Origin: a virus
Taxonomy: Duplodnaviria > Caudoviricetes
Strand: one strand, 5' to 3'
Virus record (IMG/VR): IMGVR_UViG_3300009528_000005
Span: 1 to 50,805 of that record
DNA: 50,805 nucleotides
Positions 1-8,944 of this stretch are shown piece after piece (positions within the stretch are counted from its first letter, which is position 1; each line of letters opens with the position of its first letter). The position numbers and the translations under genes are program-made. The notes under the pieces were generated by a model. That model did no database searches. It was not told the DNA's origin and worked only from the letters and a program-made list of their open reading frames with translations.

Positions 1-123
1 CCTGCGAGACTACGCTGTTCCCAGGTGGGGGATATGGGCTAAATTTCAAGTGTCCCGATTCTGTGCCTGACCAGCAGACGGCTGATATGGCTTTGAAGGT
101 TGAAGAGACTTTAGTGGGGGCAG
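1..123. repeat. Terminal direct repeat / circular assembly overlap (copy 1)
   Basis: Identical to 50683-50805; a reading frame runs across the junction. Confidence 0.95.
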
Positions 124-140
124 GGCATGAGGTGGTCTGA

Positions 141-290
141 ATGAAAGAAACCCTAACAAAAAGTGACGTGCTGAAGTGTCGTGGCATACGGGATGAGGGC
201 GTGTGGGTTGATGCAAATAGGAATGTACGGATAAACACCAAATTACCTCTTGAAAAAATTATTGAGATAGTTCAAGCCCTTCAACGATAA
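141..290 (+). CDS. Small hypothetical protein (49 aa, MKETLTKSD...IVQALQR), last late gene; its stop lies in the distal attC
   Basis: ATG directly after TGA at 138-140, GAGGTG upstream; translated by hand. Confidence 0.55.
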   Translation: MKETLTKSDVLKCRGIRDEGVWVDANRNVRINTKLPLEKIIEIVQALQR

Positions 291-401
291 AATCAGCGGC
301 GGGTTATTTAAGTGTCGCCTATAATTGTTTTAGGTTTCCATTTTGGCAAATCTTTTGTCTTCACAAATAATGCAACTCGTCCGCTGCATTGTGGGTTAGG
401 A
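279..401 (-). other. attC site of cassette D
   Basis: + strand: CAAC-gataa-AAT-CAGCGG-CGGGTT ... AACTCG-t-CCGCTG-c-ATT-gtgg-GTTAGGA. Confidence 0.8.
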
Positions 402-550
402 GGCGCATTTCCTATAGCCCAACGAACCCCCGCTAAAAAATGACTCAAACGATCTCTATACTGCTCCTGCGTAGATGTTTTTATTTGGAAGTTCTCCGTT
501 GACCATTCATGCAGACATGTTTGAAACCATTCGGCTGCCTTTTCAATCAT
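308..550 (-). CDS. Cassette D ORF, hypothetical 80 aa, reads into its attC
   Basis: SD AGGAGG inside core site GTTAGGAGGC just before ATG. Confidence 0.75.
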   Translation of the reverse strand: MIEKAAEWFQTCLHEWSTENFQIKTSTQEQYRDRLSHFLAGVRWAIGNAPPNPQCSGRVALFVKTKDLPKWKPKTIIGDT

Positions 551-557
551 AAAAGCC

Positions 558-620
558 TCCTAACAACAAGCTCACTGGTAGACTACCCTGTAGACTATCC
601 AGTGCAGTAATGGGTTAGGA
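558..620 (-). other. attC site of cassette C (63 nt)
   Basis: TCCTAAC-aacaa-GCT-CACTGG-TAG ... CTA-t-CCAGTG-c-AGT-aatgg-GTTAGGA. Confidence 0.9.
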
Positions 621-770
621 GGAATGAATTGCTATGACTGTACTGATCAAACCCCCAAAATAACCAATCAGCCAAAAAATCACTTTATTTTCTGTGTGGC
701 GGTATATGTCTAAATACACTCCTATACTCCCAGAAAGGATTATAATAAACAAAGCCATTAATATTCTCAT
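615..770 (-). CDS. Cassette C ORF, 51 aa two-TM membrane protein (MRILMALFIII...)
   Basis: Start moved to 770 after SD in GTTAGGAGGAATG; TAA stop lies inside the R'' box as in classical cassettes. Confidence 0.75.
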   Translation of the reverse strand: MRILMALFIIILSGSIGVYLDIYRHTENKVIFWLIGYFGGLISTVIAIHSS

Positions 771-778
771 TACATTCC

Positions 779-862
779 TCCTAACAACAAGCTGAGCGGC
801 GGGATTATTCTGCCTCAGATGGGCTATTCCTTTTTCCTGTCCGCTCCAGTGGTGGGTTAGTT
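779..862 (-). other. attC site of cassette B (84 nt)
   Basis: TCCTAAC-aacaa-GCT-GAGCGG-CGGGA ... TCCTG-t-CCGCTC-c-AGT-ggtgg-GTTAG. Confidence 0.88.
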
Positions 863-996
863 TTCGGTGGTGTGCATGGGCTACAAGTACAGCCCCATTT
901 GCCATTCTTAAAATACCACCATGACCAGCCAGTTTTTGACCAATGACAGCTATCCTTTTTCCAGCCATCCTTGCCATCAACACGTCTTTTTTTCAT
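805..996 (-). CDS. Cassette B ORF, 63 aa Trp/Cys/Lys-rich protein (MKKRRVDGK...)
   Basis: GAGG SD before ATG at 996; reads into attC. Confidence 0.65.
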   Translation of the reverse strand: MKKRRVDGKDGWKKDSCHWSKTGWSWWYFKNGKWGCTCSPCTPPKTNPPLERTGKRNSPSEAE

Positions 997-1011
997 AATA
1001 AACCTCAAGCA

Positions 1012-1139
1012 ATCTAACGACAAGCTCACCCGTGCGGTGGTCTATGGATAGGACATCTTGGGTCAATATTCAAGAATCGTTCGTCTTCTGGCTTAACCTC
1101 ACATGTGCAAACCGCATCGGGTGCAGCAGTGGGTGGGGA
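1012..1139 (-). other. attC site of cassette A (R'' degenerate, CAC for AAC)
   Basis: ATCTAAC-gacaa-GCT-CACCCG-TGCGGT ... ACCGCA-t-CGGGTG-c-AGC-agtgg-GTGGGGA. Confidence 0.8.
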
Positions 1140-1283
1140 GGCGCTTAAACGCAAAAACCTATTGATATCCTTTATTTCATGTAATAATTCAAAAAGTAGA
1201 TTAGCTTCAACAGTTTGAGATTTTATTCTACCACCATCAAATTCAACAAATACATTTAAATAACTATCTCTCGTAATTTTCAT
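1026..1283 (-). CDS. Cassette A ORF, hypothetical 85 aa with C-terminal CxC...CxxH
   Basis: SD GGAGG in core site GTTGGGAGGC. Confidence 0.75.
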   Translation of the reverse strand: MKITRDSYLNVFVEFDGGRIKSQTVEANLLFELLHEIKDINRFLRLSASPPTAAPDAVCTCEVKPEDERFLNIDPRCPIHRPPHG

Positions 1284-1290
1284 TTTAGCC

Positions 1291-1332
1291 TCCCAACCAG
1301 GGGATTACCTGCATATTTGCCGCATATCCCCT
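1291..1332 (-). other. attI-like site
   Basis: GTT core at 1295-1297 without an attC partner arm; direct repeats ATATGCGG/ATATGCAG and inverted AGGGGAT/ATCCCCT. Confidence 0.55.
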
Positions 1333-1468
1333 ATTCATATTTTTTCTGTTTCTTTATATAATCCTGATACTCCTCACACTTAGCCTGTTTCTTGCATCGT
1401 TGCTCACAGATTAAATGATGAATCCAGAGTTTACTGGATCTTTTCTGGCAAAAGACGTACTTTCTCAA
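1331..1468 (-). CDS. Small Cys-rich protein (45 aa, MRKYVFCQKR...)
   Basis: TTG start overlapping upstream TGA, GGAGG SD; translated by hand. Confidence 0.55.
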   Translation of the reverse strand: MRKYVFCQKRSSKLWIHHLICEQRCKKQAKCEEYQDYIKKQKKYE

Positions 1469-1752
1469 AACTTCCTCCCCATAATCTCTCGGTGCTTGAC
1501 ATACCGATTCATCCAGCGTCTCATACTACCAAGGGTCTTAAATTCTTGAACCTCATATAATTCTGATACTATAAGAAGTCTCCATGCTCCCCATGCCCTT
1601 TTGTTAGGCTGACATATCCAAGCTGTTCTTCCAATAGTAACCGGCTGCTGAATACTCTCCCCAAACCATGAAGCCATGTGGTCAATGACGGAAACCGAGG
1701 GATCGTCCTCAATCAGCTTGGCGATGTCAAGGGGGTTTAGTTTTATTTTCAT
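1465..1752 (-). CDS. Hypothetical early protein
   Basis: ORF in tightly packed leftward operon. Confidence 0.65.
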   Translation of the reverse strand: MKIKLNPLDIAKLIEDDPSVSVIDHMASWFGESIQQPVTIGRTAWICQPNKRAWGAWRLLIVSELYEVQEFKTLGSMRRWMNRYVKHREIMGRKF

Positions 1753-1757
1753 TGTGG

Positions 1758-2558
1758 CTAAAACGGAACTGGCGCACCATTTAGTAGTTGCTCTGAAGGC
1801 TCTGGGATCTCATCTTTCGGAGCGTTCGACATAGCCGTTCTGAAGCCCATACAGGTAGCAACGTCCCCACATTGGCTACTACAGTATATCGTGGCTACAG
1901 GATCACCTTTATTGGCGTCTAGGGGGCATTCTGCAACAGGTACTTTGGTTGCAAAATCGCCCTTGGGTACGTCTGTAAGGGGTGCTACCGTGTCTTTATC
2001 ATCCACAAATATCTCACTTTCTGGCTTGATCTCATGCTCCCCCACATCAAGCCCGTGTGCTTTCTCCCACATGGCTATGCCAGCATCCACGATCTCCAAG
2101 CAGAAGTCCTTGAAAGAGTGGGAAGAATGTAGTTTCATATTTGTTAGGGCAATCCCAGCATCTTTTGCGTATGAAATACAGACAAAAAGGCTCTTTTCAT
2201 CTCTTGAGCTGACAGTAGATGACTTGCTTGTTCCCTTGGGACTACTAGTATGTGGCTCATGGATTTCAGGTTGTTCGTCATCAGGTAGTTTCATGTCCTT
2301 GATGATATTATTAACAAAGGTTCTTCCTTCATTATCTCCTTTGCCAGCTACTCTCTCTACACTATATTCCATGTAGGAAATTCTCATGCCTTCCCAAGGT
2401 ATTAATTTATTTCCTGAATGCCAATAAGTGTACTTATCATCGTTCTTGTCAGTATAAAAGTTGTAGGGTGTAGACTCCCACGATCTATCTTCCTTGGTAA
2501 AAGATTGAGTTTTGCCCTTATATACCTTGGTAATTCTAAGATCGGTTAATTGTGGCAT
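1758..2558 (-). CDS. Putative single-stranded DNA-binding/recombination protein
   Basis: Beta-rich N-terminus, acidic tail ending PVPF, next to exonuclease. Confidence 0.5.
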   Translation of the reverse strand: MPQLTDLRITKVYKGKTQSFTKEDRSWESTPYNFYTDKNDDKYTYWHSGNKLIPWEGMRISYMEYSVERVAGKGDNEGRTFVNNIIKDMKLPDDEQPEIHEPHTSSPKGTSKSSTVSSRDEKSLFVCISYAKDAGIALTNMKLHSSHSFKDFCLEIVDAGIAMWEKAHGLDVGEHEIKPESEIFVDDKDTVAPLTDVPKGDFATKVPVAECPLDANKGDPVATIYCSSQCGDVATCMGFRTAMSNAPKDEIPEPSEQLLNGAPVPF

Positions 2559-2568
2559 GGTTGTTCTC

Positions 2569-3219
2569 CTATAATAATTGTTTCAAGACCTTCTCTGCCT
2601 TTGCCAAGTACAACGCCCTCTCAAAGCAACCCCACGCCTCATCGGGTAAATCTGCCCTATAATGATGTATGAAGCTCAGATATTTCCCGTCTCTAGGCAT
2701 TTGTAGAACATCGAATCTCTTTATCGGCTTATATCCGTTTTCCTCTGCCAAGACTTTGTAAGCTACCGGCTGAATCCAACTATCAGGATAACCGAACTTC
2801 CCCGATTTCCAGTCCAATATCGACAACTCACCCAAAACTAAGCCGATTACATCGGGTGTGCCCCCAAATTGCCATTCCTCACTTATGAGGTTGGGTTCAA
2901 CTGCTAATGGCTCAAACTCAAACTGTTCTGACCATTTTTCAAAGTTGGCAAAGGACTTTTTACCTCCCTCTATATCCTTGTCAGACCATTCGAGGTTGAA
3001 TTGTGGTTCTTTCTTTTTCAAAAAGCACTCGACAAGGTAATGCCCTATTGTACCGGGAACGGTTACAGTATCATAGGCTTCTTGCAGGGTTTTGCCTTCA
3101 AGTCCCTGCTTGTTGGCCCACCACATAAGAGGAGCGGTGCCCCATCCTATATTCTTTTTAATGGTGGTAACGCCTTGTAATCGCTTGCCGTCTTTGTTCT
3201 TATAAACAACTCTAGGCAT
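2569..3219 (-). CDS. PD-(D/E)XK exonuclease (Cas4/RecB-like)
   Basis: GVTTI, GTIGH, E, GTPD, ILDWKS, QxxAY motifs. Confidence 0.85.
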   Translation of the reverse strand: MPRVVYKNKDGKRLQGVTTIKKNIGWGTAPLMWWANKQGLEGKTLQEAYDTVTVPGTIGHYLVECFLKKKEPQFNLEWSDKDIEGGKKSFANFEKWSEQFEFEPLAVEPNLISEEWQFGGTPDVIGLVLGELSILDWKSGKFGYPDSWIQPVAYKVLAEENGYKPIKRFDVLQMPRDGKYLSFIHHYRADLPDEAWGCFERALYLAKAEKVLKQLL

Positions 3220-3346
3220 CGTCTGGATTTCCTTTCTCTGTTCTCCCGTACTCCCTCAACTCATCCGGGTCACAAGGCGGTTTGGATTCCAGCTTGTAAA
3301 GTTCTTGCAAAACAAGCTCGTCTAAGAATGCTTCGTGGTCTGTCAT
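3212..3346 (-). CDS. Small acidic protein (44 aa, MTDHEAFLDE...)
   Basis: AGGA SD; fills gap and overlaps the next start. Confidence 0.5.
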   Translation of the reverse strand: MTDHEAFLDELVLQELYKLESKPPCDPDELREYGRTEKGNPDDA

Positions 3347-3357
3347 GGACTGGTTCC

Positions 3358-3585
3358 TTATGGCTCCTCTGGTTCTTTTATATCTGCAACCTTTTCACCA
3401 AAGATGCCCTCAGCTTCATTTACTTTATTTAAATTCCTCCACCCAAATATTTGAAAACATAAACAAGATTCCTTTTCCCCATTCTTAGCATATTCTTGAA
3501 CCTTAACTATATCCCACACATCATCCCATTCAGTACCGGGGCGATACCAATAATAACCCGCTTCTGTTGGCTTCAAATATTTCAC
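3358..3585 (-). CDS. Hypothetical protein (PTEAGYYWYR motif)
   Basis: Common small phage ORF motif; GAGGAG SD. Confidence 0.7.
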   Translation of the reverse strand: MKYLKPTEAGYYWYRPGTEWDDVWDIVKVQEYAKNGEKESCLCFQIFGWRNLNKVNEAEGIFGEKVADIKEPEEP

Positions 3586-3740
3586 TTTATTATCTTACTC
3601 CTCAGAATTTTCACAACATGCATCCCCGACCCATCACAGACCACAATGCTATCCGGCTCGACCCAGCACTCACTCACCGAAACAGAGCTAGGCGACAGGG
3701 CTATCAGGGCTATTATTGCTATGGTTAGTGTCCTCTTCAT
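3582..3740 (-). CDS. Small secreted protein (52 aa, MKRTLTIAIIALIALS...)
   Basis: GAGG SD, signal-like N-terminus, GTGA overlap. Confidence 0.55.
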   Translation of the reverse strand: MKRTLTIAIIALIALSPSSVSVSECWVEPDSIVVCDGSGMHVVKILRSKIIK

Positions 3741-3758
3741 CCTCTATCTTCACTTTAA

Positions 3759-4133
3759 TTAAAACCTTATCCCTATGGTATAATTGTACGTGACACAGGC
3801 TCCAGACACCCCTATCCACACCCCTAACCAAACCCTTCTCCACTTAGAAGGAAGAAAGTGAGCGATTACAATTTCCCCTATGGCAGTGGCTAAAAAATAA
3901 GTGTCCACTTGACCTTGTGTTGGATGTCTGCCAAGACAAGGGTTCGTTTCATGGTAATTTGGATTTCTTGCTATTTCTTTGGTCTGCAAATAATCAATAG
4001 TCCGCAAACCAAGGCTGGCCCCCAGCAAAGCTTTGTCTGTCTTTGTCCATTCATCTGCGGCATAACAATTGGAGCAAAAGACAAACACAAACAAACATAT
4101 AGTAATAAGCGGAGTCGCTTTACTTCTTTCCAT
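3759..4133 (-). CDS. Membrane protein with signal peptide (ETNPxLGxxP motif)
   Basis: Start moved to 4133; several hydrophobic segments. Confidence 0.7.
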   Translation of the reverse strand: MERSKATPLITICLFVFVFCSNCYAADEWTKTDKALLGASLGLRTIDYLQTKEIARNPNYHETNPCLGRHPTQGQVDTYFLATAIGEIVIAHFLPSKWRRVWLGVWIGVSGACVTYNYTIGIRF

Positions 4134-4374
4134 CCAACCACGCCTCCATCTTTTCGGGGCTGCCCCAGCAGTTGCCAGGAGCCTCATGGTAGAAGAACGC
4201 AATAATATCAAGTAATCGTTCTTTGTCTTTTTTGTCTATTCTGCGGTAGCTCTCCACTAGGTTGTTGCAAATGACAGCCTGCAAGAAACCCCCGTCACAT
4301 TCTGGTCGTTGCCTTTCTTCGATGTATCGCCAAACACTGGCTTTAAGGTGCTTCGGTAACAGATTGTAATTCAT
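4120..4374 (-). CDS. Conserved hypothetical phage protein
   Basis: GGFLxAVxxNNL...PxxCWGS pattern; GAGGT SD. Confidence 0.75.
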   Translation of the reverse strand: MNYNLLPKHLKASVWRYIEERQRPECDGGFLQAVICNNLVESYRRIDKKDKERLLDIIAFFYHEAPGNCWGSPEKMEAWLDGKK

Positions 4375-4509
4375 ATTTACCTCTTTTATGTAGCCCGTGA
4401 GCCAGATAAGGAGGATTAGGCCGTTGTCCGGCCCACGGGGTCAAGGGATGCTTAATATTTTCTCCGAGGTTATTTGCGTTTGTAAGAAAAATCAGCACCC
4501 CTCAGTTAA

Positions 4510-4613
4510 GGGCGTGGGCAGGATTTTCACCTGCACCGGGGTTACTAACTATGCACCAAGCCATCCCGGAGGGGGTGCTTCCGTACCCTGCGTCTAATTC
4601 CGCGACCACGCCC
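4510..4613 (-). ncRNA. tRNA-like RNA with extended, non-canonical anticodon arm
   Basis: Acceptor GGGCGTGG/CCACGCCC, D arm GCG-GAATTAGA-CGC, T arm GCAGG-TGAAAAT-CCTGC; no CCA. Confidence 0.6.
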
Positions 4614-4657
4614 ATGCTTTTTCAAAGAGCTTATTCCCGCCCCGTAGCAGCCGACCC

Positions 4658-4866
4658 CTAAAACTGAGCCTTCTCCGTGCTCATGGCCCTGCCGTGAGAG
4701 CTTCGTTGTTCCTTTGTTGGCTTGATAGTTTGTTGATGAGACCAACGCATTAATTCAAAAATAGTTGTTTTGCTTGGCAAAAAAGTCGTATGACTTATAA
4801 AATCCGCTAAAAGCTCATCCAAAGCCTTGTGCAACTCGACATGGCGTTGCTTGTGTTCTTTTTCAT
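4658..4866 (-). CDS. Hypothetical protein (HKxRHxELH motif); ORF track 4658..4870
   Basis: ORF track; ATGA coupling with the upstream gene. Confidence 0.65.
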
Positions 4867-5151
4867 TCATGGTTTTCGTGTCCCCGGTCCTATCGGGGGT
4901 TCAATCTCTTCCTTCCACAAACTCACCGTCTCAACCCCTCCCTCGTCATGGGCTATGATATAGGGCGTACCTGTGGCCCTGAAGTGCTTGGTCCAGTTCT
5001 CCAAGATGCCCTTAGCGGTCTCTGGTGCGCCGCCAAAGGAGTATGTGCTGCCCATCTTGAGGCTTGGAACGAAGTCCATCAGGGGAACACCCTCAAGTAG
5101 GTGGGGCTTGTATGCGTCAATTCCGCGTTGCATGAGATCTGAGAGAGTCAT
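4867..5151 (-). CDS. Hypothetical protein
   Basis: ORF in leftward operon. Confidence 0.65.
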   Translation of the reverse strand: MTLSDLMQRGIDAYKPHLLEGVPLMDFVPSLKMGSTYSFGGAPETAKGILENWTKHFRATGTPYIIAHDEGGVETVSLWKEEIEPPIGPGTRKP

Positions 5152-5157
5152 GACTAG

Positions 5158-5421
5158 TTAAAAACACTCGCTCCATTCATAGCCGTCTGATTCAATAGCT
5201 GGACGAGTTCTTAGTTCTTCCCAATGAATTGCGTAACTTATAGCACCCCTTTTCGAGCCAAAAACATTAACGCTTTTTCTGTTTTCGTGTGGTAGCCACA
5301 AACAGTATTTCCCATCAGGAGAACAAAGCAATTTATACCCATCTGGCATCTGTTCTTGTGTATCGCCACATGTGATAAACATTACAGACATTAATAAAAG
5401 AACAATTGTAATTTTCCTCAT
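5158..5421 (-). CDS. Putative lipoprotein
   Basis: MRK + hydrophobic stretch + FITC. Confidence 0.6.
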   Translation of the reverse strand: MRKITIVLLLMSVMFITCGDTQEQMPDGYKLLCSPDGKYCLWLPHENRKSVNVFGSKRGAISYAIHWEELRTRPAIESDGYEWSECF

Positions 5422-5448
5422 AAAAACCCCAACTGTACGGGTATGGTC

Positions 5449-6276
5449 TTATTTGAGTAAGTGCCAAGCTTCCTCATACTTTCTTACTCGTTCCCAATAC
5501 ATATTTCTTCGGTATTTATTAAGCCATTCATATTTGTGGGTATATCCTGAATCTCTAACAACAAAAGATTTCCTGCCATTTGTATTTGGAAAAACATAAA
5601 AGGTGTTTTGGGGTTGGACGTAAAAAATAACAAAATCAGCCTCTTTTTGTTGTCTTGGGCTTAAAGTGGTACAATAAAAAGTTGCTCCCTTTGGCCTTGT
5701 GGGGCTTCCACTGTTTCTACTTTTTACTTCAACTAGTTTCCCGTTTATTTTAAAATCTACTACATGACCCTTGGGTGCATATTCACATTCATAGCCCAAC
5801 TCCTCACATTTTTCTAAAACTAGAACCTCTGCTTTTGCTCCTCTTTTTACTAGACTATCCCTCTTGTCTATTATTTTGAGTCGTGGATCACAAACACAAT
5901 CCCAAATTTTCATTTCGGCTTGTTTCAATGCGGTTTTTTCTTTTTGGATTTGACCATAAGGAATACCATAAAGTCCTTTAAAAAGTTGCCTAGCTCTTTC
6001 ACGGGTAAAGCCATATGCTTTTGCAAGTTCAGTAAGATTCCAAAATTGTTTCTTGAAAAGCAAATCGAAATCTTTAAGAATTTCCTTGCCATGATTTTCA
6101 ACAAGATTAGATCGTAGAATTTCTTTTGGGGTTCGTTTTCTAGTTCTTCGATGGGTTCTCTCCCACCAGCGTTGATAACAACGGGAACACAGGCCACGCT
6201 TTTTGATATGGATAGGTTGATCTTGGCAAGTACAACAAAGGGGTTCTAATTCGAGTTGAGTGGCAAGCTGTTTCAT
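5449..6276 (-). CDS. Zn-finger/HTH + PD-(D/E)XK endonuclease (homing-endonuclease-like)
   Basis: CxxC...CxxCY, LTELAKAYGFTRERARQL HTH, VDFKINGKLVEVKS. Confidence 0.7.
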   Translation of the reverse strand: MKQLATQLELEPLCCTCQDQPIHIKKRGLCSRCYQRWWERTHRRTRKRTPKEILRSNLVENHGKEILKDFDLLFKKQFWNLTELAKAYGFTRERARQLFKGLYGIPYGQIQKEKTALKQAEMKIWDCVCDPRLKIIDKRDSLVKRGAKAEVLVLEKCEELGYECEYAPKGHVVDFKINGKLVEVKSRNSGSPTRPKGATFYCTTLSPRQQKEADFVIFYVQPQNTFYVFPNTNGRKSFVVRDSGYTHKYEWLNKYRRNMYWERVRKYEEAWHLLK

Positions 6277-6288
6277 GGTTGCCTGACT

Positions 6289-6351
6289 ATTACATAACTG
6301 TAATCTTAATGCAACCCTGAATAAACGAAGTGTAATTTACAGAACTGTAAT
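6289..6351. promoter_or_regulatory. Operators ATTACA-N4-TGTAAT overlapping the leftward promoter
   Basis: Palindromes at 6289-6304 (perfect) and 6336-6351 (1 mismatch); TTGCAT -35 on the - strand. Confidence 0.65.
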
Positions 6352-6470
6352 CACATAGGATTAATTACACATTCGATCTAAAAATCAGCCATTTTCCCCT
6401 GTTTTCTCGCCTTTTCACCCACAAACAGCACTTGCATTGTAATTCTTGACTATGATAAAAGAAATATGTT

Positions 6471-6845
6471 ATGAAATCCGTCATGCTTCAAAGACTCCAA
6501 CCCCGATTTAAGCATCTGATTGAAATCTATCAGGGCAAAACCGGGAAAGACCAAAAAACCATCGCATCAGATGTGGGGCTACCGGCTTCACGTCTTTCGG
6601 GGCTTCTTACGGAAAGCACTAAGTTGAGTGCAACCTATCTTGAACCTTTTATCTGGGGTGGAGTAATTAAAGTGGCCGACATTTATGATGGCAAGCCAGA
6701 AACCGCCAAAGAAGTCGAGTTCTGGAAAAGAATGAGTTACGCTGAGAGGACAGACCTTACTGATTTGATGGTTCGTTTGGAAAACGCCGGGAAAGATCCG
6801 AAACGAGTTATGCTTGAGGCTTTAATTGAGGCCGAAAAAGCATAA
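6471..6845 (+). CDS. XRE-family HTH repressor-like protein
   Basis: QKTIASDVGLPASRLSGLL HTH; flanked by operators; no peptidase domain. Confidence 0.75.
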   Translation: MKSVMLQRLQPRFKHLIEIYQGKTGKDQKTIASDVGLPASRLSGLLTESTKLSATYLEPFIWGGVIKVADIYDGKPETAKEVEFWKRMSYAERTDLTDLMVRLENAGKDPKRVMLEALIEAEKA

Positions 6846-6860
6846 TTTTTTTGTTTGACG

Positions 6861-6918
6861 ATTACAAAAGTGTCAGGGGGCATATATTTTTTTGCCCTCT
6901 GGATTACACAAATGTAAT
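6861..6918. promoter_or_regulatory. Rightward operators
   Basis: ATTACAcaaaTGTAAT at 6903-6918; ATTACAaaagTGTCAG at 6861-6876. Confidence 0.6.
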
Positions 6919-7049
6919 TTACAAACATTTACCCATCTTACTATCACAGAATGCAAAAGAAAAACACTGAGAAACTATGGAGAAAGGGAAGGGTGGTAAG
7001 CAAGCGAGGGAATGGATGGATTGAATGGGGCTACTTTATCTAACTCATC

Positions 7050-7810: not shown

Positions 7811-8944
7811 TTGAACTTATCCCCCAATTCTGATACAGCGCCTCCAAATAACCAGGGGGAGGTGGCATTGGTGACACGATGCAAGTATTACAGGCGCAAG
7901 GATGTGAGGTCTGAGCGTTACGTTGTCTATCTTGATTACAAGGGCAAGCGGTGGACACGGACGTACTTTGACGATCGTTTGTCCATCTGTGCAAAACCTA
8001 TGGCGCGGGAGCTTTGCTCTGAAATCAGCGCCGATTACAGGCGCAACCCGAAGACGTTTGACCCGCTTAAATGGTTCAGGGTCAGGCTGTCAGAGATGCG
8101 ATTCAGAAACTATGCTGATAGATGGCTTGATCGCAGGGACATCGAGGAGAGTTCCTATCAGGTATATAGGCATATTCTCAACGAAGCATTGGAAGTTCTT
8201 GGCGATTTGGACATCCGGGATATCCGAAAGTCCCACCTGAGGGATTACGTTGAGGGGTTGTCGAAAGACCTGTCCCCGAATACCGTCCGATACAAACTGT
8301 CCGTCCTGAACATCCTGTTTCGGGATGCCTACAATGACGAAGAAATAAACAGAACGCCTGGATTCCCCAAAATCAAGGCCGTGCCGGTTGTGACCCGCTG
8401 GTTAAACTACGAGGAACAGCAACAGGTACTTGAACACATCCCTGAACCAGATAAACCGATATTCAAATTTATGACGTATTATGGTTGCCGGGTAGGAGAA
8501 GCCGTGGCTTTGATGTGGGACTGTGTGGATTGGAGGCAGGGGGTTGTTACGATAAAGCGCACACTTTCGGCCAACAAGATCAGAGAAAGCCGCAAGACCG
8601 GGAATGTTCTGTGCCTACCGCTCACCGATGAAATGGAAGCCTTGTTGCGGCCACTTCGTAGTCTTCGCAAATTTGTGTTCACGAACAGGTATGGCCGGAG
8701 ATATTACAGACAAAACCTTCTGCGTACTTGCAATATAGCTTGTGAGAAAGCTGGGTTTGAACGCCTGTCCTTGCACGAACTATGCCGACATTCCAAGGGG
8801 GGCCAGTTAATTAACCAAGACGTGCCGCTCGAACAAATATCGGCATTATTGGGACACAAACATACTAATTCAACAAAGCGATATATCAAAATAAAAACGG
8901 AAACCCTGAAGCCGTTGGTAGAACATCCGGTTACGGACCGATAA
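7811..8944 (+). CDS. int: Tyrosine recombinase / integrase (start uncertain)
   Basis: Catalytic R (GCRVGE), K, HxxxRH, LGH, Y; SAM-like core-binding domain. Confidence 0.92.
   Translation: MNLSPNSDTAPPNNQGEVALVTRCKYYRRKDVRSERYVVYLDYKGKRWTRTYFDDRLSICAKPMARELCSEISADYRRNPKTFDPLKWFRVRLSEMRFRNYADRWLDRRDIEESSYQVYRHILNEALEVLGDLDIRDIRKSHLRDYVEGLSKDLSPNTVRYKLSVLNILFRDAYNDEEINRTPGFPKIKAVPVVTRWLNYEEQQQVLEHIPEPDKPIFKFMTYYGCRVGEAVALMWDCVDWRQGVVTIKRTLSANKIRESRKTGNVLCLPLTDEMEALLRPLRSLRKFVFTNRYGRRYYRQNLLRTCNIACEKAGFERLSLHELCRHSKGGQLINQDVPLEQISALLGHKHTNSTKRYIKIKTETLKPLVEHPVTDR

Follow-up and report, generated by a model that had tools for sequence, protein, structure and literature searches.

What does a row of attC sites do in a phage, and can the recombination core of an integron cassette serve at the same time as the ribosome-binding site of the gene that it carries? 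Both questions are raised by a locus in IMG/VR record IMGVR_UViG_3300009528_000005, a virus record that is complete at 50,805 bp and carries a direct terminal repeat of 123 bp; this whole stretch of DNA was analysed and is called the window below. Four attC sites and four cassettes occupy positions 277-1297 on its minus strand. We consider it quite probable that this array is an integrase-less attC cluster (CALIN) of four cassettes, in which, for three of them, the R' box doubles as a Shine-Dalgarno (SD) sequence, which was inserted by a host integron integrase, and whose cassettes are translated in a coupled manner. A preliminary description, made from the sequence without database searches, had placed the array at 550-1297. 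These limits are too short, as the fourth cassette and its attC lie outside them, while the cassette sizes of 221-279 bp given there agree with those measured between the G|TT crossover points (Table 1).

attC geometry and cassette boundaries

According to the description of Nivina et al. 2016 (PMC5027507), an attC site is characterised by extrahelical bases 16 and 23/24, a conserved distal T, a 6-bp spacing and a length of 57-141 bp. We took the plus strand as the bottom strand for this geometry. In the L box of each of the four phage sites, base 16 and the T at position 23 are unpaired, with exactly six pairs between them, and in each site the alignments and folds leave an unpaired central spacer of 6 nt per arm, 5-6 nt being the length that defines an attC. 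Both extrahelical bases are invariant and stand on the arm opposite AAC (C in column 118 and T in column 111 of alignment A2). The 5'-AAC of R' is present in all four sites and the complementary GTT of R'' in three, attC_D having GTG, and the lengths, from 67 to 132 nt, all fall inside the described range. When the four sites are aligned, 96.6% of cells pair, compared with 25-47% once the partner columns are slid, and six of the ten L-box pairs are compensatory, that is, changed on both sides. The bottom strand is moreover the more stable one in every site (-17.5 vs -15.1, -11.8 vs -8.5, -17.9 vs -16.0 and -14.6 vs -13.0 kcal/mol, bottom vs top). A covariance model (R1), built from the four phage sites trimmed to CTAAC...GTTAG and thus blind to GGAGG, matched only these four sites in the window, where the next best score was 10 bits, and it found no attC upstream of the left junction.

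The boundaries were assessed by the pairing of each R'' with the 5' nonamer of its own cassette and with that of its in-array neighbour. R'' of c1 pairs at 8/9 positions with its own 5' end, which is the left junction 1289-1297, vs 4/9 with the neighbour; the corresponding values are 7/9 vs 5/9 for c2 and 9/9 vs 5/9 for c4, and c3 pairs at 9/9 with both. Among five candidates, the cassette's own 5' end is thus the best or joint-best partner of R'' in all four cassettes. Such complementarity is expected only if each unit was once a circle closed at G|TT. All four open reading frames (ORFs) are co-oriented with their 3' attC. Taken as sequence evidence, this supports the view that the four sites are genuine attC sites which bound cassettes.

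One site departs from the others in its R box. R'' of attC_D (1133-1141) reads CCTCCCCAC instead of CCTCCTAAC, and because the usual in-frame TAA is replaced here, the c1 frame stays open and is longer by about 38 codons. This loss of TAA costs the AAC/GTT pairing of the R box.

Table 1. Features of the array and of its surroundings; cassette sizes run from one G|TT crossover point to the next, and attC scores are from model R1
Feature	Position	Strand	Remarks
Left junction GTTGGGAGG	1289..1297	-	Crossover at G(1297)|TT; SD of c1 is GGAGG, with 5 nt to ATG 1283
Cassette c1, 279 bp	1018..1296	-	ORF 1283-1026, 85 aa; residues from about 48 onward encoded inside attC
attC_D, 132 nt	1010..1141	-	R'' CCTCCCCAC, R' GTTAGATTG; 104.7 bits
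Cassette c2, 233 bp	785..1017	-	ORF 996-805, 63 aa, W/K/G-rich; SD (GAGG) outside R'
attC_C, 88 nt	777..864	-	R'' AAAACTAAC, R' GTTAGGAGG, which is the SD of c3; 77.1 bits
Cassette c3, 221 bp	564..784	-	ORF 770-615, 51 aa, hydrophobic; stop is the TAA inside R''
attC_B, 67 nt	556..622	-	Perfect 9-bp R box (CCTCCTAAC / GTTAGGAGG); 59.4 bits
Cassette c4, 279 bp	285..563	-	ORF 550-308, 80 aa; residues from about 50 onward encoded inside attC
attC_A, 127 nt, last site	277..403	-	R'' CCTCCTAAC, R' GTTGAAGGG; 111.5 bits
Convergent ORF, 49 aa	141..290	+	No family match
Hairpin GGGGAT...ATCCCC, phage flank	1299..1330		DNA folds of -6.5 (plus) and -8.0 (minus) kcal/mol
Phage tyrosine integrase	7811..8944	+	PF00589, phrog_1; ordinary type, not an integron integrase

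Compact cassettes in the phage and in the bacterial attC family

The motif GTTRGGAGG occurs five times in the window, with all copies within 395-1297; shuffled sequences gave an expectation of 0.70, and none of 100 shuffles reached five. Three copies are on the minus strand (1297-1289, 785-777 and 564-556), where they precede the ATGs at 1283, 770 and 550 by 5, 6 and 5 nt, and the two plus-strand copies are complementary R'' boxes. The remaining cassette, c2, begins with GTTAGATTG and has a separate GAGG 6 nt before its ATG. The preliminary description had stated that three of the four cassettes start with GTT(A/G)GGAGG shortly before ATG, so that the crossover box supplies the SD sequence, and both parts of this statement hold, as the R' extension is a GGAGG well spaced from the start codon in these three. 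Its further claim, that three ORFs read through R''/L'' and stop inside the attC, was confirmed as well: the c1 ORF reaches 116 nt into attC_D, the c2 ORF 60 nt into attC_C and the c4 ORF 96 nt into attC_A.

Is this arrangement a common property of the attC sites to which those of the phage are related? An exact 17-mer match led to G001, a deltaproteobacterial metagenome-assembled genome (MAG) with 27 R1 matches, and 16 of the 151 genomes sampled from its order, likewise deltaproteobacterial MAGs, contained such matches. The bacterial sites read RTAAC...GTTAK on the strand on which an SD and an ATG come next. Integron integrases scoring above the TIGR02249 cut-off were present in four of the five genomes with matches that were checked, and in G146 a split intI, transcribed divergently, has four co-oriented sites at distances of 2.1-5.7 kb. 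In cellular genomes, the attC family of the phage is associated with intI.

The split intI stands beside the attC array of locus L078 (G146:C1:5908710-5909652) as two adjacent pieces (model positions 1-184 and 193-315) and is probably a broken gene. A tandem array with 13 R1 matches is found in L025 (G001:C46:12844-15458, locus positions about 1370-2560), where attC sites of 49-55 bp follow each other 79-105 bp apart. The spacers between them are only 28-52 bp long and alternate between two types, one forming a small hairpin of its own, which makes them ORF-less mini-cassettes; this array follows an AT-rich region after a thiolase-like gene and extends to the contig end. At the first extrahelical base (column 118 of alignment A2), the bacterial loci L019, L023, L047 and L061 have C, like the phage, and other members, such as the G001:C46 array, have the usual G.

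Extension of R' to GTTRGGAGG was found at three of five boundaries in the phage vs one of 67 distinct bacterial attCs (Fisher p = 6.6e-4), a set which includes one shortened duplicate and many rows from one genome; in addition, there were one GTTAGGAGA and one GTTATGGAG. Counted from the G of R', a start codon preceded by an SD follows after 14, 22, 15 and 14 nt in the phage; in bacteria the median of this distance is 38 nt, with a value of 16 nt or less in one of the 21 rows that could be scored. A stop codon deep inside the attC terminates three of the four phage ORFs vs two of 32 upstream frames in bacteria, of which 24 stop before the attC and six at the TAA of R''; this sample consists of attCs with an upstream open frame of at least 240 nt, two G001 mini-cassette rows having been dropped, and the ORF calls in the bacterial comparison are heuristic. 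The cassette architecture of the phage is thus more compact than anything in the bacterial sample of the same attC family. The preliminary description had named equal frequency of GGAGG in bacterial R' boxes as the outcome that would speak against it, and this sample is far from such equality. It had also proposed a compact, phage-adapted cassette class; the compactness is indeed rare in the bacterial family, but "phage-adapted" rests on one phage with four cassettes, and one phage cannot decide whether the architecture is an adaptation of this kind.

A second phage with this attC family was not found, either by the exact 17-mer of the attC end or by a degenerate L'-R' pattern (no matches in viral contigs), and the viral contigs contained no close relatives of c4 or of the 266-aa neighbour protein. 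The 17-mer gave 15 single matches in genome contigs, with attC-like flanks only in L009. A metagenome scan for GCTTGTYGTTRGGAGG returned at least 120 stretches; 80 loci were listed, in which the R1 screen found no attC, and these were discarded as chance matches.

Proposed coupled translation and insertion, and alternative explanations

If R' supplies the SD sequence, its complement has to be considered too. CCTCC in R'' is complementary to the R' extension and brings the R box to a length of 9 bp. This 9-bp helix is, in DNA, the R box to which the integrase binds when the bottom strand is folded, and in mRNA the same helix could sequester the ribosome-binding site of the next cassette. Folded as RNA, the attC_B region has a minimum free energy of -32.1 kcal/mol (z = -3.39), and in the predicted structure the whole GGAGG of c4 is paired with CCUCC of R'' in a 9-bp stem which also contains the c3 stop codon. 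A ribosome finishing c3 would then open this stem, in the manner of classical translational coupling. As the upstream ORFs end in R'' (c3) or cross R''/L'' (c1, c2 and c4), ribosomes would melt the hairpins and couple translation down the array. The suggestion made earlier, that translation unfolds the attC hairpins, agrees with published work, but the predicted folds support it clearly only at the c3-to-c4 junction.

How did the array come to its present place? Both of its ends coincide with G|TT crossover points (the left junction reads TGG|TT), and no partial attC is present. These boundaries lead us to infer insertion of the cassettes by an integron integrase of the host. The target would have been a secondary GTT located where two convergent operons meet, and before insertion it would have read CCCCTGG|TTGAAGGG. 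The array stands at the 3' end of the leftward operon of the phage, from which the cassettes would be transcribed. Insertion of this kind at attG sites, with the consensus GWT, was shown experimentally (bioRxiv 10.1101/2022.09.11.507474).

A number of observations weigh against this reading. In a TIGR02249 search of the phage, the best match scored 13.1 bits vs a cut-off of 265 bits and is the ordinary phage integrase, 6.5 kb from the array; neither attI nor a cassette promoter (Pc) was recognised in the phage. The array is thus not adjoined by the intI, attI and Pc of a complete integron, and it is for this reason that the locus is filed as a CALIN and not as an integron. In the bacteria, R1 gave no matches within 1.5 kb of full-length intI genes at six loci. 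The first extrahelical base of the phage sites is C instead of the usual G. At four of the five boundaries (GTTAGGA twice, GTTGGGA and GTTGAAG), R' has a purine in position 7, and only GTTAGAT fits the GTTRRRY consensus, of which the R'' counterpart is RYYYAAC; this deviation is exactly the GGAGG extension. In R'' of attC_D, CAC replaces AAC, and the in-array R box pairs at only 4/9 positions. Since c3 and c4 have identical 9-nt ends, the three GGAGG cassettes are not fully independent. Strong sequestration of the SD sequence is predicted at attC_B only: in the attC_C RNA fold, which is no better than shuffles (z = 0.04), pairing is limited to GUUAG plus two other bases, and the SD that follows attC_D, that of c2, is outside the site. 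Finally, the cassette proteins have no informative relatives, so that conservation gives no support for translated attC-encoded tails, and the single-sequence structure models of c1 and c4 have low confidence, their predicted local distance difference test (pLDDT) averaging 50.7 and 57.9. In the c4 model, a helical hairpin of residues 3-48 ends where the attC starts and the attC-encoded tail has a pLDDT below 50; incidental read-through would suit such a model, which is too weak to rely on.

One may ask whether the array is not simply a piece of a chromosomal integron, captured passively by illegitimate or homologous recombination. Its compact features would then be small-sample accidents and GGAGG an ordinary SD sequence, with no adaptation to the phage. 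Chromosomal integron fragments are documented in phages, including some Vibrio phages (PMC9892861), GTTAGGAGG followed by ATG also occurs in a bacterial genome (L032, in G001), and arrays of the bacterial family, such as L025, can have very small cassettes; the identical ends of c3 and c4 and the existence of only one such phage point in the same direction. On the other hand, boundaries at G|TT on both sides, with no remnant of a partial cassette or attC, fit insertion by an integrase better than random capture, and three separate measures of compactness all deviate from the bacterial sample. We therefore regard passive capture as somewhat unlikely.

Another explanation would be that the small ORFs, or at least their attC-encoded tails, have no function, the cassettes being non-coding or in decay and the read-through incidental. 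It would account for the lack of relatives of c1, for c4 having only spurious or repetitive weak matches, for the predicted disorder of the c4 tail (in a low-confidence model) and for the degenerate R'' of attC_D. Nevertheless, all four ORFs have an SD sequence 5-6 nt before ATG, the two long attC loops, of about 110 nt, contain no stop in the ORF frame, and the one change by which R'' loses its in-frame TAA is present in attC_D, which together make this explanation improbable. None of the four proteins matched a family in Pfam, PHROG, PADLOC or NCBIfam; among 5.8 billion clusters the only match of c1 was c1 itself, and the atlas search gave no informative relatives of c3. The weak matches of c4 were to a repetitive 285-aa ORF and to PAS repeats and were set aside as uninformative.

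That the hairpins are palindromes of the phage itself, either stems that sequester SD sequences or repetitive extragenic palindrome (REP)-like elements unrelated to integrons, would be in line with the lack of an integron integrase in the phage, with SD/anti-SD pairing in stems as is typical of translational control and with the absence of Rfam matches in the window, but it is extremely improbable, as the extrahelical bases, spacers and R boxes have exactly the geometry of attC, R1 retrieves co-oriented sites followed by SD and ATG in integron-bearing bacterial genomes, and the complementarity between each R'' and the 5' end of its own cassette is explained only by circular cassette intermediates.

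At the level of sequence, attC identity, cassette boundaries, SD spacing, the overlap of ORFs with attC and the rarity of these features in arrays of the bacterial family can be regarded as established.

Phage context and relation to known systems

The genes recognised in the window encode a large terminase, a head-tail adaptor/connector, major head and tail proteins, a replication initiator, an exonuclease and a tyrosine integrase. Judging by these terminase, structural and replication genes together with the tyrosine integrase, the phage is a temperate tailed phage. It is uncultured and comes from a subsurface metagenome, the label of the only public run in which the stretch is present. This DNA run (kept as contigs), probably the source, contains a single identical contig with no joints, and no RNA run with the stretch is listed. 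A terminase in L069 (G323:C391:952-2220), from a genome of the same order as G001, is 43% identical to that of the phage, and the best terminase matches in the isolate-phage collection are 22-28% identical. The L069 terminase may mark a related prophage and hence the host group. The likely hosts are the integron-bearing deltaproteobacterial (Desulfobacterales-like) bacteria in which the attC family is found, an assignment for which the terminase similarity is weak support.

Two features border the array. R' of attC_A continues into the phage flank, at the end of the convergent plus-strand ORF 141-290, the last codons of which overlap this R' and the stop of which lies in the unpaired attC spacer; this ORF may be spurious, or else its C-terminal end may have been altered when the cassettes were inserted. 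The hairpin 1299-1330, which R1 did not match, is no attC; it lies immediately upstream of c1 and is followed by a T-rich stretch on the plus strand. Prior to insertion of the array it may have terminated the convergent late operon, and the original target between the two convergent operons may have included it. Searches of the window gave no Rfam matches and no tRNA, and promoter-like and terminator-like sites in a scan of positions 1-7000 were not above shuffles.

Phage CALINs, as well as the interplay of translation and attC hairpins, are already published. Qi et al. 2023 reported 17 CALINs in 10,705 NCBI phage genomes (PMC9892861). Like those, our array has at least two co-oriented attC sites with cassettes, no integron integrase, GTT boundaries and a nearby hairpin or terminator-like flank; unlike those, which come from other hosts, it belongs to an uncultured temperate phage of a subsurface metagenome and to a deltaproteobacterial attC family. 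Cassettes of 221-279 bp, an SD sequence inside R' and ORFs inside attC do not appear in those descriptions from PMC9892861 with which we compared it.

As for translation, Jacquier et al. 2009 (as reviewed in PMC8876359) found translation downstream of attC stem-loops to be hindered, an effect relieved by an ORF inside the attC, and Carvalho et al. 2024 (PMC11511950) described polar effects of cassette translation, with attC overlapping the stop codon in most resistance cassettes. Common to these systems and to the one proposed here is an attC hairpin in mRNA that hinders the next cassette and is relieved by the passage of ribosomes. In those systems R' is followed by the SD sequence, and the ORF involved is a separate short one or the gene end takes its part, whereas here the SD sequence belongs to the R-box helix and the cassette's own ORF extends 60-116 nt into attC. 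In the translational coupling of ORF-11 and attI1 in class 1 integrons (Hanau-Bercot 2002, via PMC8876359), a recombination site likewise doubles as a translation signal and an upstream ORF stops inside the GTTRRRY core. That signal is in attI and serves the first cassette only, while here each such cassette has an SD in R' and an anti-SD in R''. The attG insertions (bioRxiv 10.1101/2022.09.11.507474) resemble our model in having cassettes outside an integron, at a GWT site and under a resident promoter, and differ from it in that the insertion here is only deduced, an empty site for comparison not having been found. Synthetic attC sites in coding sequences (Nivina et al. 2020, PMC7439510) share the combination of attC structure and coding frame in the same DNA; those were engineered, and here the overlap is natural and found in three of four cassettes. 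Our literature search found no SD sequence built into an R box, which is not proof of absence.

As a speculative extension, which we think unlikely to hold as a whole, cassettes with a TTRGGAGG 5' end and CCTCCYAAC as R'' could form a modular, self-coupling type: any two of them in tandem would rebuild a 9-bp helix, at once the integrase R box in single-stranded DNA and an SD/anti-SD clamp in mRNA, and thereby chain their expression, and phages would carry and exchange such cargo by means of the host integrase.

Integron cassettes provide one of the major routes of gene exchange; their carriage by phages was recognised only recently and appears to be rare. The locus adds to it a clean four-cassette array in a complete temperate phage, with likely sulfate-reducer-like hosts. 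It also indicates how far a cassette can shrink, with the ribosome-binding site placed in the recombination core and up to 116 nt of an attC being coding. If the R-box helix is a translational clamp, the array would provide a simple natural model for the control of expression by cassette order, a matter under active study in resistance integrons. If the self-coupling type is real, each cassette would rely for its expression on translation of the preceding one, attC loops would serve as coding sequence and integron cargo could be carried at about 250 bp per gene, and this cargo could be exchanged with host integrons through the host integrase, with the phage operon in place of Pc.

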